This document shows, one piece after another, positions 40,300 through 43,775 of a stretch of 64,000 nucleotides of DNA. Position numbers and translations under genes: made by a program. The DNA lies in assembly GCA_963681965.1 (NCBI GenBank), contig OY820579.1:2752001-2816000 (forward strand), read 5' to 3'. The notes below the pieces were generated by a model that saw only the letters and a program-made list of their open reading frames with translations, did not search any database and was not told the origin of the DNA. Position 1 is the stretch's first letter. Each line of letters starts with the position of its first letter. Source of the stretch: a bacterium. GTDB taxonomy: Bacteria > Electryoneota > JAOADG01.

Positions 40300-41997
40300 A
40301 TGAGTCATTTCGGTACGTACGAGGAAAGTTACGCCAACTTCAATTGGTCGATTTCGGAAAAAGAACTCGATTACAAACCAGGCGACGTAATCAATATTGG
40401 ATGGTACTGCAGCGATCGAATCTGCAAACTCGGTAAAGCGAATAAAAATGCTCTGCTTTGGGAGAACCATCTAGGCGAATCCAAGACCTTCACATATAAC
40501 GATGTTCGAGTATATTCGAATCATGTCGCGTCTTTTCTGCTTGAATTGGGTATCAAACCCGGTGAACGCGTTTGCTTGTTTATGGATCGAGCGCCGGAAT
40601 TGTACATCGGTTTTGTCGGCATCCTCAAGATGGGTGCGGTAGCACAACCGCTGTTCTCGGCATTCGGCGACGAATCGTTGTTTACTCGTCTAGACAACGC
40701 CAAAACTTCTGCAATCTTTACGCAAAAGAAGCATGTCGCTAAAGTTCGCAAGATCTTGAAAGACCTTCCCGAATTGCGTCATATCATCGTGATTGATTCA
40801 CCCGATGGACCCTTCAAAGATCGCGAAATACCATTCACAATGGAAAGCAAGCGCGTCGAAGAGTTTGAATCGTTCCCGAGCACTGCCGAAACGCCCTCCG
40901 TGCTGCACTATACTTCCGGAACCACCGGACAACCCAAGGGTGCACAGCATGTGCATGGTTCATTGATCTCTCAGTACATCACCGCGAAATGGATTCTCGA
41001 TCTCCACGATGACGATGTATACTGGTGCAACGCCGATCCGGGGTGGGTGACCGGTACTTCGTACGGTATCATTGGACCGTGGTCAAATGGCGTCACTCAA
41101 GCGGTGTACGATGCAGGATTCAGCTCTGAAACTTGGTACAAATTTATCGAAAAATATCGCATCAGTGTCTGGTATTCCGCCCCGACTGCAATTCGGTTGT
41201 TGATGCGCGATGGCACCGATATTGTTAAGAAATTCGATCTTAGTTGCCTTCGCCATCTAGCTAGCGTTGGCGAACCACTTAACGCCGAAGCCGTCATCTG
41301 GTCGCAAGAAGCGTTCGGAATCATGTTCCTCGATACTTTCTGGCAGACTGAAACCGGTTGCATGGTGATTACAAATCACCCCGGTATGCCGATTAAACCG
41401 GGTTCGATGGGTAAGCCATTCCCGGGCATCACAGCGACTGTACTCGATCTGAAAACCTACGAACCGATCACTGTTCCGGGACGTGTTGGCTTGATCGCAC
41501 TGAAACCGGGTTGGCCTTCGATGATTCGCACTTACTGGAATAATCCGACTGGGTATCAGAATAAATTCAAGAACGGTTGGTTTATTTGCGGCGACCGTGC
41601 TTCGATCGATCAGGAAGGATATTACTGGTTTGTCGGTCGCGACGATGATGTGATCAATACTGGTGGACACCTAGTCGGTCCGTTTGAAATTGAATCGGCA
41701 TTGTTGGAACATCCTGCAGTTGCCGAATCGGCTGCCGTCGCCAAACCGGATAAAGTAAATATGGAAGTCGTGAAAGCGTTCGTAGCATTGAAACCGGGGA
41801 ACGAACCGACATCCGATCTTGAACTTGAGATTATGAATTTTATCCGCAAACGGCTTTCGCCGTTGGCAATGCCGCAAGAAATCGAATTCGTCAAATCGCT
41901 ACCGAAGACACGCAGCGGAAAAATTATGCGACGCGTGCTTCGCGCGCAAGAGTTTGGTGAACCGATCGGCGACTTATCAAGTTTGGAAAACGATTGA
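40300..41997 (+). CDS. AcsA-like acetate/short-chain acyl adenylating ligase
   Basis: YTSGTTGQPKG, ADPGWVTG, SVGEPLN, DTFWQTETG, GRDDD, LPKTRSGKIMRR. Confidence 0.9.
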   Translation: MSHFGTYEESYANFNWSISEKELDYKPGDVINIGWYCSDRICKLGKANKNALLWENHLGESKTFTYNDVRVYSNHVASFLLELGIKPGERVCLFMDRAPELYIGFVGILKMGAVAQPLFSAFGDESLFTRLDNAKTSAIFTQKKHVAKVRKILKDLPELRHIIVIDSPDGPFKDREIPFTMESKRVEEFESFPSTAETPSVLHYTSGTTGQPKGAQHVHGSLISQYITAKWILDLHDDDVYWCNADPGWVTGTSYGIIGPWSNGVTQAVYDAGFSSETWYKFIEKYRISVWYSAPTAIRLLMRDGTDIVKKFDLSCLRHLASVGEPLNAEAVIWSQEAFGIMFLDTFWQTETGCMVITNHPGMPIKPGSMGKPFPGITATVLDLKTYEPITVPGRVGLIALKPGWPSMIRTYWNNPTGYQNKFKNGWFICGDRASIDQEGYYWFVGRDDDVINTGGHLVGPFEIESALLEHPAVAESAAVAKPDKVNMEVVKAFVALKPGNEPTSDLELEIMNFIRKRLSPLAMPQEIEFVKSLPKTRSGKIMRRVLRAQEFGEPIGDLSSLEND

Positions 41998-42124
41998 TCG
42001 ATTCTGGAGTTGATTCTGGAATTCTATAGTCAATGGTTCGTTAGAAGTGTAATTTGATTTCGCAATTGTCTGGAGTGATCGCCGATTGCTCAGACAAAAA
42101 TATCTAATGTTATTGGAGATGACC

Positions 42125-42382
42125 ATGGCAACTATGCATGAAGCCGTACTGAATTACATCAAGAAGGAATATCTTGAAGAAGACGACGACACCGAAATGA
42201 CCTATGATACGCCATTGATCAGTGGTGGTATCGTCGATTCGTTTTCGATGGTATCGTTGAAAGTTTTTCTCGAGAAAAAATATTTAATTTCGATTCCCGA
42301 TGCGAAGGCAACTCCGCAAGCATTCGATACTGTAAACAAGATTTGCAAGCTGGTCAAAGAATTCCGTCCCGATGCGGAATAG
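42125..42382 (+). CDS. stand-alone acyl/peptidyl carrier protein
   Basis: Acidic 85-aa protein with GGIVDSFS phosphopantetheine site; GGAG RBS 6 nt before ATG 42125. Confidence 0.88.
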   Translation: MATMHEAVLNYIKKEYLEEDDDTEMTYDTPLISGGIVDSFSMVSLKVFLEKKYLISIPDAKATPQAFDTVNKICKLVKEFRPDAE

Positions 42383-42462
42383 TCGAATCTGACTGGTCGG
42401 AATACACTCACAACATTCTTTGACAATTGCAGTGTTTTCGATCATCCCGAAAGGAAACAAGC

Positions 42463-43707
42463 ATGGCGTACAAATCTGCGAAAGATATTTTCGCGAAGAC
42501 GATCGACAAGATCAAAGACGATGGTCTATTTAAGACTGAACGATTGATTTGCAGCCCGCAAGGCGCCGATATCAAAGTCCGATTTCCGGCTGATGCTCCG
42601 GAAAAAGAAGTAATCAATATGTGTGCCAACAACTATCTCGGTTTGGCAAATCATCCCGAGGTCGTTAAAGCTGCGCACGAAGCACTCGACATCCGTGGAT
42701 ACGGGATGTCTTCGGTTCGCTTTATTTGCGGCACGCAGGACATTCATCGCGAATTGGAGAAGAAAACTGCGGAATTTCTTGGCAAGGAAGACTGCTGCGT
42801 ATTCGGTAGCTGTATGGATGCCAACGCTGCAGTATTCGAAGTATTACTATCGGAAGAAGATGCAATCATCTCCGACCGCTTGATTCACGCGTCGTTGATC
42901 GATGGTATTCGGCTTTCGAAGGGTCAAAACTTCAACTACAAGCATGCCAACATGGAGCATCTGGAAGAGAAGCTTCAGGAAACGCAGAATTGCCGAATTC
43001 GGTTGATCGTCACCGACGGTGTCTTCTCGATGGACGGCGATACCGCACCGATGGACAAGATCTGTGAATTGGCAGAGAAGTATGAAGCGATGGTGTTGGT
43101 CGACGATTCACACGGTACTGGATATATCGGTAAAACCGGTCGTGGCGTTCACGAATTGTATGGGGTGATGGATAAAGTCGACATCATCACCACCACCTTT
43201 GGCAAGGCGCTCGGCGGTGCTACCGGCGGTTGCGTGGCAGGTCCGGCGGAAGTTGCCGAATTGATGAAACAGCGCGGTCGAACTTATTTATTCTCGAATG
43301 CGATTCCACCGGCAACGGCACTCGCTTCGATGAAAGTGATCGAAATGTTGAGTTCTTCCACTGGTCTGCGCGACAAGCTCGAGAAACTCACTGAATACTG
43401 GCGGAAGGGTTTGACCGAAGCCGGATTTGATGTCAAACCGGGTGATACGTCGATTGTTCCGGTGATGCTGTACAATGCGAAGTTGGCGCAGTCATTCAGT
43501 AAAGATCTGTATGACGAAGGGATCTATGCCGTCGGTTTCTTCTTCCCGGTAGTTCCGGCAGCACAGGCGCGAATTCGTACCCAGATCAGTGCCGGTCATG
43601 AATTCCATCATCTTGATAAAGCACTTGCCGCATTCAAGAAGGTGGGCGCGAAGCACGGTATTCTCGGCATGAAGAAGAAAGATATTATCGCGCGTTTCGG
43701 CGAATAA
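42463..43707 (+). CDS. second Kbl-like alpha-oxoamine synthase
   Basis: [64 protein letters not shown]. Confidence 0.9.
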   Translation: MAYKSAKDIFAKTIDKIKDDGLFKTERLICSPQGADIKVRFPADAPEKEVINMCANNYLGLANHPEVVKAAHEALDIRGYGMSSVRFICGTQDIHRELEKKTAEFLGKEDCCVFGSCMDANAAVFEVLLSEEDAIISDRLIHASLIDGIRLSKGQNFNYKHANMEHLEEKLQETQNCRIRLIVTDGVFSMDGDTAPMDKICELAEKYEAMVLVDDSHGTGYIGKTGRGVHELYGVMDKVDIITTTFGKALGGATGGCVAGPAEVAELMKQRGRTYLFSNAIPPATALASMKVIEMLSSSTGLRDKLEKLTEYWRKGLTEAGFDVKPGDTSIVPVMLYNAKLAQSFSKDLYDEGIYAVGFFFPVVPAAQARIRTQISAGHEFHHLDKALAAFKKVGAKHGILGMKKKDIIARFGE

Positions 43708-43745
43708 TTTCTTCACGCATTACTACCATCGTATTACATCAGTTG

Positions 43746-43775
43746 GGGAGGGCTCGCGAGCCCTCCCTTTTTTTT
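43746..43775 (+). terminator. intrinsic terminator closing the ligase-ACP-synthase unit
   Basis: GGGAGGGCTCGCGAGCCCTCCC followed by T8. Confidence 0.9.

Follow-up and report, generated by a model that had tools for sequence, protein, structure and literature searches.

A conserved ligase, carrier protein and Kbl-type synthase module as a candidate carrier-dependent route between acetate, glycine and 2-amino-3-ketobutyrate

Three adjacent genes in the window, which is the whole 64,000-nucleotide stretch of DNA that was analyzed, encode an Acs-type adenylate-forming ligase (LIG), a stand-alone carrier protein (ACP) and a Kbl-type α-oxoamine synthase (Kbl2). We favor, with moderate confidence drawn from sequence comparisons, a reading in which the carrier is charged with acetate and Kbl2 reversibly converts acetyl-carrier and glycine to 2-amino-3-ketobutyrate. 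An earlier note on this DNA had proposed a short-chain, carrier-dependent counterpart of the AasR/AcpR/Spt system of sphingolipid synthesis. That proposal is partly supported and is the reading that synteny, phyletic coupling, clade structure and the predicted acetate pocket back best; the GGHL motif that it pointed out in the ligase is, however, no lesion of the CoA site. A literature search that took in few subscription journals and left out supplements returned no paper on an acetyl-carrier-dependent Kbl.

LIG (565 amino acids) is encoded at 40300-41997, ACP (85 amino acids) at 42125-42382 and Kbl2 (414 amino acids) at 42463-43707, all on the + strand. The carrier ORF as called (42086-42382) was shortened to the ATG at 42125 that is common to the starts of its orthologs, and the Kbl2 ORF as called (42427-43707) was shortened to a conserved ATG at 42463. 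Kbl1, a canonical Kbl of 396 amino acids, lies on the − strand at 38712-39902 and is divergent from LIG across a 397-bp intergenic spacer without strand (39903-40299, from the ORF coordinates). An intrinsic-terminator-like hairpin and T run at 43745-43778 on the + strand closes LIG-ACP-Kbl2. The hairpin (43745-43768) begins 38 bases past the Kbl2 stop and has a 10-pair stem with 7 G-C pairs and a 4-nt loop, followed by TTTTTTT. Three co-oriented genes, a closing terminator and a second Kbl facing them are what the earlier note had described, and its motifs were located in LIG at residues 249 (WVTG), 347 (FWQTE) and 455 (GGHLVG) and in the carrier at residue 35 (GIVDSF). Terminator-like sites are not enriched in the region (5 observed versus 4.5 expected); the module terminator is remarkable solely for its strength and position, not for the site count. 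Promoter-like sites show no excess (8 versus 8.2 expected from shuffling). An Rfam scan of the spacer and the rest of the module at E ≤ 1 found no riboswitch or leader, and the sub-threshold matches were confined to the Kbl2 end, over the terminator and a long hairpin just beyond it. No match reached an Rfam gathering score in nine related loci picked from 92 module loci.

The pairing of carrier and Kbl2 is above a chance neighborhood. The search for carrier loci yielded at least 505, and 80 loci with the carrier, bearing at least 14 phylum labels, were fetched for neighborhood counts. All 80 loci have a Kbl2-type gene downstream of the carrier, and in 77 of them the two are no more than 400 bases apart. 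LIG is present in 70 of the 80, which shows by synteny that the trio is conserved. Where 1800 or more bases of upstream sequence are available (72 loci), LIG lies within 400 bases in 54, lies farther off in 11 and is absent in 7; genomes with a LIG-less locus encode LIG elsewhere, at 71-75% identity, in four of five cases. Of the 61 relatives searched, 13 have the carrier (58-100% identity), 12 have a LIG ortholog (at least 69% identity) and 11 have both; the remaining ligase matches are all at or below 47%. No LIG ortholog was found in three genomes with carrier and Kbl2, namely G014 (96% complete) and G043 (89% complete), which belong to one genus, and G068. Carrier-Kbl2 pairs in such genomes mean that loading by LIG cannot be universal.

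Other neighbors of the module were counted in the same 80 loci. A check of phosphopantetheinyl transferase (PPTase) co-occurrence found AcpS encoded in 16, and a second PPTase elsewhere in four of five genomes with AcpS at the locus. Kbl1-type matches occur in 35 loci, 30 of them complete genes. Beyond LIG, Kbl and AcpS, no real family recurs in more than 8 of the 80 loci, and the recurrent neighbors include no lipid genes and no MBOAT. In seven Bacteroidota loci the gene downstream of Kbl2 encodes a transporter for acetate uptake (NF038013, 271.8 bits), and in two relatives (L025 and L027) carrier and Kbl2 are separated by a gene of the nitroreductase family.

The small protein has the predicted fold of a carrier. 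Its Ser39 lies within the stretch GGIVDSFSMVSLK, invariant in a 12-sequence alignment with a mean column identity of 77%. An AF2 model (pLDDT 83.6) shows a small helical carrier fold with the conserved serine at the start of helix II, and the helix at 42-52 begins just past Ser39. The model matches the folds of PigG, PltL, DltC and AcpP with TM scores of 0.65-0.79, the best being PigG, PltL and DltC. No Pfam family, PF00550 included, matched the carrier at E ≤ 0.001, and a PF00550 profile search of the genome did not report the carrier position; a housekeeping AcpP-like PF00550 match is present elsewhere in the genome. NCBIfam gave sub-threshold matches to OlsHI ACP, AmcB, DltC and AsbD, the best being OlsHI ACP at 63.7 bits versus a cut-off of 130. 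These matches, together with the fold matches to PigG, PltL and DltC, bear out the previously noted likeness to DltC and type II peptidyl carriers. A modeled complex of two Kbl2 chains and the carrier, with alignments as input, scored 0.27 (mark 0.32), a value that weighs neither for nor against a complex.

The best families of LIG are acetate--CoA ligases, not long-chain FadD-like enzymes. LIG matches PF00501 and PF13193 and scores 738.4 bits on NF003313 (acetate--CoA ligase, AcsA type, PRK04319), barely over the equivalog cut-off of 729. Among solved structures it is closest to 9g79, an acetyl-CoA synthetase of 572 residues (E 7e-165 over residues 5-563). Residue counterparts were placed by an alignment with 2p2f, and conservation was counted in 61 module ligases. 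V310, T311, V386 and W414, which we take to form the acetate pocket of Salmonella enterica Acs, correspond to V250, T251, V323 and W348 in LIG. All 61 module ligases share V250, T251 and W348, and 60 of the 61 have V323. The catalytic lysine motif SGKIMRR is found at residue 539. The A8 arginine position (S. enterica Arg526) is Leu458 in all 61 module ligases, within the GGHL motif that the earlier note set against the SGHR/SGER of CoA-using Acs enzymes. One study describes Arg526 as a contact to the phosphate of the acyl-adenylate, not to CoA, and the A8 arginine as required for the thioester-forming step (PMC10455477). All 61 module ligases retain R516, which corresponds to Arg584 of S. enterica, a contact to the CoA 3'-phosphate. 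No clear equivalent of the R191 loop was seen in the alignment, either in LIG or in the 9g79 enzyme. GGHL was rejected as a lost CoA contact on these grounds and, judged from sequence, the motif by itself is no proof of lost CoA use. Use of CoA by LIG is possible, since the NF003313 cut-off is passed and R516 is retained.

GGHL weighs as evidence because it marks a clade whose two sampled branches both adjoin carrier proteins. LIG falls inside this xGHL clade (support 94), and the Arg-bearing Acs forms fall outside. In the other sampled branch a PF00550 carrier follows in 62 of the 69 loci with enough sequence, and an MBOAT gene follows in 22 of 46. A homolog search with LIG returned close orthologs only, and the outgroup of the ligase tree was taken from protein representatives. 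Three ligase matches in relatives (42-47% identity) were considered as xGHL paralogs and rejected, being Arg-bearing Acs forms. More than 120 ligase clusters were recovered at 73-83% identity, and every one with a name from its source is called an acetate--CoA ligase or acetyl-CoA synthetase. These names indicate that public databases file the module enzymes as ordinary acetyl-CoA synthetase and glycine C-acetyltransferase.

Kbl2 scores 566.4 bits on TIGR01822, which passes the equivalog cut-off of 493, and 219-317 bits on serine palmitoyltransferase (SPT) models versus cut-offs of 500-670. Kbl1 scores 637.3 bits on TIGR01822 and falls on the Escherichia coli Kbl side of the tree; the two proteins of the window are 53% identical. 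All 84 carrier-linked Kbl2 proteins group in a single clade (support 100), apart from E. coli Kbl and the Kbl1 group. Its sister is a tail-bearing, carrier-less Kbl group (FastTree support 99) that adjoins an SDR-type threonine dehydrogenase (Tdh) gene in 11 of 13 loci. All 84 Kbl2 proteins carry the same residues as E. coli Kbl at K244, H136, D210, H213, S185, T241, N50 and R368, presumably the positions that serve PLP and substrate. Kbl2 differs at 12 positions from the Kbl1 group, the sister group and E. coli Kbl; at the other 20 tabulated positions of E. coli Kbl, including K244 and R368, no change is seen in any of the 84. Among the Kbl2-specific changes, N135V/I is next in sequence to H136, and F112M and G116A flank D113-N115 in sequence. 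The Kbl2 of the window is off the clade consensus at several clade-specific positions, for instance with a Met in place of Cys at 268 and a Leu in place of Arg at 302. The C-terminal tail and D334N were rejected as carrier-docking features, because both are common to the carrier-less sister group and not specific. We infer that Kbl2 derived from true Kbl enzymes.

The simplest alternative is that the annotations are right. LIG would be a second acetyl-CoA synthetase, Kbl2 a second CoA-dependent Kbl, and the small protein a regulator, a chaperone, a structural partner or an unrelated carrier. Both enzymes score over their NCBIfam equivalog cut-offs, the Arg584 counterpart is kept in LIG, the Kbl catalytic residues are unchanged in Kbl2 and the carrier has no Pfam PP-binding match, all of which fit this account. 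Set against it are the adjacency of carrier and Kbl2 in every fetched locus across at least 14 phylum labels, the invariance of Ser39 and its surrounding motif, the carrier-protein fold of the predicted model and the AcpS genes within the operon in 16 of 80 loci. The same genome already has a canonical Acs and Kbl1, and the other sampled xGHL branch likewise lies beside a carrier. Taken together, the observations make this account quite unlikely.

A second alternative keeps the carrier and changes the substrates. A small acid other than acetate or an amino acid other than glycine would be used and a free α-aminoketone made, which could serve in signaling, as a precursor of pyrazines or as a secondary metabolite. 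The changes N135V/I, F112M and G116A next in sequence to active-site residues would suit a different substrate, as would the nitroreductase-family gene in L025 and L027. 2-Amino-3-ketobutyrate is reported to lose CO2 and give aminoacetone, from which pyrazines form (PMC9814548). This alternative is unlikely. The acetate-pocket counterparts are essentially invariant, the module repeatedly has the acetate transporter or Tdh as a neighbor, and none of the 84 Kbl2 proteins has lost N50 or R368 of Kbl. The sister relation of Kbl2 to a Tdh-linked Kbl group points the same way, and no tailoring genes recur, families other than LIG, Kbl and AcpS reaching at most 8 of 80 loci.

Threonine dehydrogenase and the facing Kbl1 form part of the wider context of the module. 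A threonine dehydrogenase-free genome was considered and rejected when an SDR-type Tdh gene was found at G000:C1:1618749-1619690. Its product is 50% identical to the Tdh from a relative's locus, and its closest solved relatives are L-threonine 3-dehydrogenases. Zn-type Tdh models score below cut-off in this genome. Among its 15 PF01370 proteins, 10 are without a Tdh name from NCBIfam, and two of these best match sugar-nucleotide enzymes. A check of tdh co-occurrence found Tdh in 61 of 61 relatives, the window's genome included, as 25 Zn-type (at least 340 bits) and 36 SDR-type enzymes with no overlap. Tdh is encoded immediately upstream of LIG in L093 and L099 and nearby in six Ignavibacteriota loci. 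The window's genome also encodes a canonical Acs (TIGR02188, 959 bits), AckA and ThrC. The presence of ThrC and AckA led to rejection of the module as the sole route to threonine or to acetate and ATP, and with Acs, AckA and ThrC already in the genome the need for the module is not evident. The proposed module plus Kbl1 would have the same net chemistry as Acs.

The favored carrier-dependent mechanism would proceed in three steps. An AcpS-type transferase would place phosphopantetheine on Ser39 of the carrier. LIG would then form acetyl-AMP from acetate and ATP and transfer the acetyl group to the carrier thiol, not to CoA, a step suggested by the pocket residues and gene context. Kbl2 would interconvert acetyl-S-carrier and glycine with 2-amino-3-ketobutyrate and free carrier, as its descent and invariant catalytic residues suggest. 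The product would be tied to threonine by the genome's Tdh and to acetyl-CoA by the facing CoA-type Kbl1. The net reaction would be acetate + glycine + ATP ⇌ 2-amino-3-ketobutyrate + AMP + PPi. In the acetate-consuming direction, an ATP-charged private thioester pool would drive an otherwise unfavorable condensation; in the other, threonine would be broken down to glycine, acetate and ATP. We lean very slightly toward the acetate-consuming direction.

A strictly catabolic module is a direction-specific form of this best explanation, and its likelihood is counted within it. Kbl2 would load the carrier and LIG would only discharge it, taking threonine through 2-amino-3-ketobutyrate and acetyl-carrier to acetate and ATP. 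Tdh in every relative searched, of Zn type in 25 and SDR type in 36, the Tdh-LIG-ACP-Kbl2 operons of L093 and L099 and the carrier-Kbl2 pairs without LIG are all consistent with it. There is also a precedent for the reversed ligase, in that the AMP-forming Acs of Syntrophus aciditrophicus operates in reverse. The adjoining transporter belongs to a family named for acetate uptake, AckA is already available to make ATP from acetyl units, and no benefit over CoA is evident; these points speak against a strictly catabolic role, which we regard as doubtful. In the broadest version, which we regard as rather improbable, the module would be an energy-conserving, CoA-independent branch of threonine and glycine metabolism, and the whole xGHL clade would be mislabeled acyl--carrier-protein ligases. 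Tdh would make 2-amino-3-ketobutyrate, Kbl2 and the carrier would split off glycine and acetyl-carrier, and LIG running backwards would convert AMP and PPi to ATP as acetate is freed. Substrate-level phosphorylation would in that case draw on a thioester bound to a protein.

What the databases list as an acetyl-CoA synthetase, a small protein and a glycine C-acetyltransferase is probably a set that handles acetate and glycine on a private carrier. If so, a textbook CoA reaction, that of Kbl, would have a widespread carrier-protein twin, and acetate, glycine and threonine fluxes would be misassigned in reconstructions of many uncultured anaerobes (Ignavibacteriota, Bacteroidota, Aminicenantes and others). 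It would be a second, short-chain case, after sphingolipid synthesis, of a private carrier diverting an acyl group from the CoA pool. The xGHL sequence clade would then separate carrier-loading Acs relatives from true CoA ligases.

The module shares parts with several known systems. Classical Kbl works with CoA and does without a carrier. Compared with the Tdh-Kbl pathway of threonine degradation (E. coli kbl-tdh, L131), Kbl2 keeps all Kbl catalytic residues checked, is sister to the Tdh-linked Kbl subfamily and belongs to a module that Tdh adjoins in some loci, but it differs from classical Kbl in the carrier that is always adjacent and in its 12 clade-specific positions. LIG resembles the 9g79 acetyl-CoA synthetase in length class, acetate pocket and catalytic lysine motif, whereas the 9g79 enzyme has SGER where LIG has GGHL and LIG sits in the separate xGHL clade tied to a carrier gene. 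The DltA/DltC/DltB system has a small free-standing carrier that an adenylating enzyme charges, as is proposed here. The carrier resembles DltC in fold and weakly in sequence (35 bits, below the cut-off of 68), and the carrier-plus-MBOAT layout of the other xGHL branch resembles Dlt; the module of the window differs in having no MBOAT and a ligase of Acs type, not DltA type. SxtA of saxitoxin synthesis has an oxoamine synthase domain that joins an amino acid to a short acyl group borne by a carrier domain. It is a single fusion of several domains that acts on arginine and a malonyl-derived unit, whereas the module consists of three separate proteins with Kbl-type chemistry. In AasR/AcpR/SPT of Caulobacter and other Rhodobacteria, published work reports that the ligase acylates only its own carrier and that the synthase favors acyl-carrier over acyl-CoA (PMC9386255). 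That system has a FadD-like long-chain ligase and a lipid precursor as product, and its synthase is SPT; here LIG is of Acs type and has the acetate pocket, and Kbl2 scores 219 bits on the α-proteobacterial SPT model versus a cut-off of 670. The two systems are alike in combining a ligase, a dedicated carrier and an α-oxoamine synthase whose genes co-occur.

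The three genes of the module lie on the forward strand. LIG, an Acs-type ligase of 565 aa, occupies an ORF at 40300-41997 (+). The 85-aa carrier protein follows in an ORF at 42086-42382 (+) with its ATG at 42125, a start common to its orthologues, and the 414-aa Kbl-type oxoamine synthase, Kbl2, lies in an ORF at 42427-43707 (+) with a conserved ATG start at 42463. A hairpin of 10 pairs, 7 of them G-C, and a T run are located at 43745-43768, 38 bases past the Kbl2 stop. The canonical second Kbl, Kbl1 (38712-39902, -), faces LIG across 397 bases. The ORFs and hairpin are as the earlier note described them when it proposed a short-chain, carrier-dependent Kbl module, and every motif it quoted is present in the window's proteins.

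An inverted repeat directly past the terminator (43778-43848; 30-nt arms, 93% complementary, 11 nt apart) has sub-threshold matches to miRNA-precursor models, which mean just a long hairpin. Downstream of the module, two ORFs that abut each other (44658-45808, -; 91 and 291 aa) resemble by eye, and may be, a two-ORF insertion-sequence transposase. The product of the gene after Kbl1 (38181-38693, -) is a bacillithiol transferase of the YfiT family, with a DinB fold; it scores 226.5 bits with NF009807, whose cut-off is 160. The proteins encoded at 37307-38131 (+) and 46302-48380 (-) have a similar C-terminal stretch, …NYPNPFNS…, which resembles, and may be, a type IX secretion sorting domain.

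Conservation was measured across the phylum in a set of 61 genomes that includes the one the window comes from. The carrier occurs in 13 of these at 58-100% identity, with weak matches inside long frames in one further genome, and a LIG orthologue occurs in 12 at 69-100% identity, all other ligase matches being 47% or lower. Both are present in 11 genomes. The sole LIG-only genome has a short contig that ends within the LIG gene, and two congeneric genomes, 96% and 89% complete, have the carrier and Kbl2 without a LIG orthologue. A wider scan with the carrier alignment against one genome per species gave at least 505 confirmed loci, of which the best 80 were kept. The unit recurs in this set, as a synteny check of the trio shows: 80/80 loci have a co-directional Kbl2-type gene after the carrier, at a distance of 400 bases or less in 77 (median 28), and LIG is present in 70/80. 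In 72 of the best 80 loci the upstream sequence extends for 1800 bases or more; 54 of these have LIG no more than 400 bases away, 11 have it at a greater distance and 7 lack it. A 71-75% identical LIG is encoded elsewhere in 4 of 5 genomes with LIG-less loci. The 60 labelled loci of the best 80 carry 14 phylum labels, which may be unreliable for co-assembled bins, most commonly Ignavibacteriota (22) and Bacteroidota (15).

The same best 80 of at least 505 loci were inspected for neighbours. A Kbl1-type gene is present in 35 (30 complete), and co-occurrence with a PPTase was borne out by an AcpS-type transferase in 16; a second PPTase is encoded elsewhere in 4 of 5 genomes with AcpS-bearing loci. 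No lipid or tailoring gene is recurrent around the module in these 80 loci. Some relatives have extra genes at the module. In L025 (8391-9020) and L027 (8339-8932) the carrier and Kbl2 are separated by a nitroreductase-family gene, and a PAP2-family membrane protein precedes the carrier in L025 (6602-7666) and L030 (7020-8117), with a homologue elsewhere in the window's genome. In one Bacteroidales module, Kbl1 and AcpS are separated by an inserted DUF6364 and PIN-domain pair (L064:6805-7457) that resembles a toxin-antitoxin system; a LIG orthologue was not found in that genome.

The small protein had zero hits in a Pfam search, and a PF00550 search of the window's genome matched an AcpP-like gene elsewhere and not the module carrier. 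Four NCBIfam carrier-protein families matched it, all below threshold, led by OlsHI ACP (63.7 bits) and followed by AmcB, DltC and AsbD. Alignment of 12 orthologues from relatives gave a mean column identity of 77% and the invariant stretch GGIVDSFSMVSLK. In the AlphaFold model (pLDDT 83.6) a helix begins just past Ser39. The top structural matches are the stand-alone type II carriers PigG, PltL, DltC and the carrier of glycine:[carrier protein] ligase, with FAS ACPs close behind (TM scores 0.65-0.79). This ranking supports the earlier remark that the carrier is nearer to DltC and type II PCPs than to AcpP.

LIG scores just above the cut-off for AcsA-type acetate--CoA ligases (NF003313, 738.4 bits against 729). 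Its residues were numbered by alignment to S. enterica Acs (2p2f), in which V250, T251, V323 and W348 are the counterparts of the acetate-pocket residues. L458 and R516 correspond to Arg526 and Arg584. L458, R516, V250, T251 and W348 are invariant in 61/61 module ligases and V323 is present in 60/61. No clear counterpart of the Arg191 loop was seen by alignment in LIG or in 9g79, the closest solved CoA ligase. PMC10455477 gives Arg191 and Arg584 as CoA contacts, with Arg584 to the 3'-phosphate, and has Arg526 touching the acyl-adenylate phosphate and stabilising the thioester-forming conformation. Since Arg526 contacts the acyl-adenylate and not CoA in that description, GGHL is not a lost CoA contact. 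The earlier observation of GGHLVG in place of SGHR/SGER stands as a distinguishing feature, with Leu458 in all module ligases and the clade of xGHL forms (the motif at this site) separate from the Arg forms; a reading of it as loss of CoA contact does not.

That separation comes from a tree built on the genome's canonical Acs, 55 full-length representatives taken from the all-protein search and 21 module ligases, these being the window's own and every third sequence of the 60 extracted. In this tree LIG falls within a clade (support 94) that includes 17 of the representatives; xGHL is found in 14 of them and GHM, GHF and GFS in one each, and all Arg-bearing Acs forms fall outside the clade. 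The weight of the Arg526-to-Leu substitution comes from this phylogeny. Sampling of the other xGHL branch used 80 metagenome loci (L148-L227, e.g. L201:3989-7324) for one representative, P0128, in which Phe occupies the Trp414 site. The module carrier, Kbl and AcpS are in 0/80 of these loci. Of the 80, 69 extend 300 bases or more past the ligase; in 62 of the 69 the next gene encodes a 77-80-aa PF00550 protein with the motif DGWDS(L/M)SH, and 4 of the other 7 have this carrier at another place in the locus. Both sampled xGHL branches thus adjoin a small carrier protein in unrelated contexts, which provides independent support for LIG as a predicted carrier-loading enzyme. Of the 46 P0128-type loci that reach 1900 bases or more downstream, 22 have an MBOAT gene there as well, a layout like that of Dlt that suggests small-acid acylation of a surface polymer. 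The few annotated neighbours include, in one locus each, a GNAT-domain protein, a polysaccharide deacetylase and a histone-deacetylase-family protein.

Kbl2 and Kbl1 both exceed the TIGR01822 cut-off of 493 (566.4 and 637.3 bits) and form distinct groups. Kbl2 is the best match for 73/73 complete oxoamine synthase genes directly 3' of the carrier and Kbl1 for 30/30 of the others near the module. A maximum-likelihood tree places 84 carrier-linked proteins on one side of a branch (SH-aLRT 100) and 37 others (the Kbl1 group, E. coli Kbl and the genome's SPT-like paralogue) on the opposite side. A third Kbl group, found by the Kbl2 search of relatives in 13 carrier-less genomes (L132-L144), is 57-61% identical to Kbl2 and has a Kbl2-like conserved C-terminal tail, K..EII..YGE. 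In 11/13 of these loci it is near a 326-337-aa gene; among solved structures, the product of this gene is closest to SDR-type L-threonine 3-dehydrogenases (E 1e-111 to 2e-125). In a FastTree phylogeny with the SPT-like paralogue as root, this Tdh-linked group is the sister of Kbl2 (support 99), and Kbl2 therefore descends from true Kbl enzymes of the threonine pathway. Both the tail and D334N were rejected as Kbl2-specific characters because they are common to the carrier-less sister group.

Twelve positions are Kbl2-specific (E. coli numbering: Y108F, F112M, G116A, N135V/I, A168H, M208F, L264C, S268A, L298R, F309W, M313L and V369T), and several adjoin active-site residues in sequence. All PLP and substrate residues checked are the same in 84/84 Kbl2 proteins. 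The basal branch of the clade consists of the window's Kbl2 with its three nearest relatives, which have residues other than the consensus at several clade-specific positions (M rather than C at 268, T rather than H at 174 and I rather than V at 141); L in place of the consensus R at 302 is confined to the window's Kbl2.

The window's genome is one contig of 4.24 Mb, 99.9% complete. It encodes a canonical Acs elsewhere (TIGR02188, 959 bits), one AcpS, AckA (544 bits), ThrC (188 bits) and an SDR-type threonine dehydrogenase (Tdh; C1:1618749-1619690). Outside the window, a third oxoamine synthase resembles CFB-type serine palmitoyltransferase but, at 565.9 bits, does not reach the cut-off of 640. 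Next to it come a 381-aa protein without a family and then an SDR, and this stretch (G000:C1:2239050-2241876; L004 and L121) may be a sphingolipid or sulfonolipid locus. Co-occurrence with tdh was confirmed. Tdh is present in 61/61 same-phylum genomes, as the SDR type in 36 and the Zn type in 25 (all at least 340 bits, 9 above the cut-off) with no overlap, and all 13 carrier and Kbl2 genomes are included (SDR 4, Zn 9). The module, in 13/61 genomes, is therefore an add-on to the universal Tdh-Kbl pathway.

The most economical reading is a three-step acetate/glycine pathway on the carrier. LIG would convert acetate through acetyl-AMP to acetyl-S-carrier, and Kbl2 would reversibly convert acetyl-S-carrier and glycine to 2-amino-3-ketobutyrate and HS-carrier. 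Tdh would tie 2-amino-3-ketobutyrate to threonine, and Kbl1 would tie it to acetyl-CoA; the net chemistry of the module plus Kbl1 would be that of Acs, with no evident gain from the carrier. Acetate consumption is favoured on two counts. In 7 Bacteroidota loci the gene directly after Kbl2 encodes a transporter of a family named for acetate uptake (NF038013, 271.8 bits), and the condensation, expected to be unfavourable because Claisen condensations without decarboxylation generally are, could be driven by a private thioester pool charged by ATP. Threonine breakdown is favoured by three points. Tdh directly precedes LIG in L093 (SDR type) and L099 (Zn type), forming Tdh-LIG-carrier-Kbl2 operons, carrier-Kbl2 pairs occur without LIG, and there is precedent for AMP-forming Acs running in reverse. 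Tdh is also convergent with the module, about 3 kb off, in 6 Ignavibacteriota loci.

No description of an acetyl-carrier-dependent Kbl was found in the literature searched, which had most subscription journals outside it. The closest characterised system is AasR/AcpR/SPT (PMC9386255), whose ligase AasR has been shown to prefer its carrier strongly to CoA; it has the ligase-carrier-oxoamine synthase logic in common with the module but differs in enzyme classes, chain length and product.
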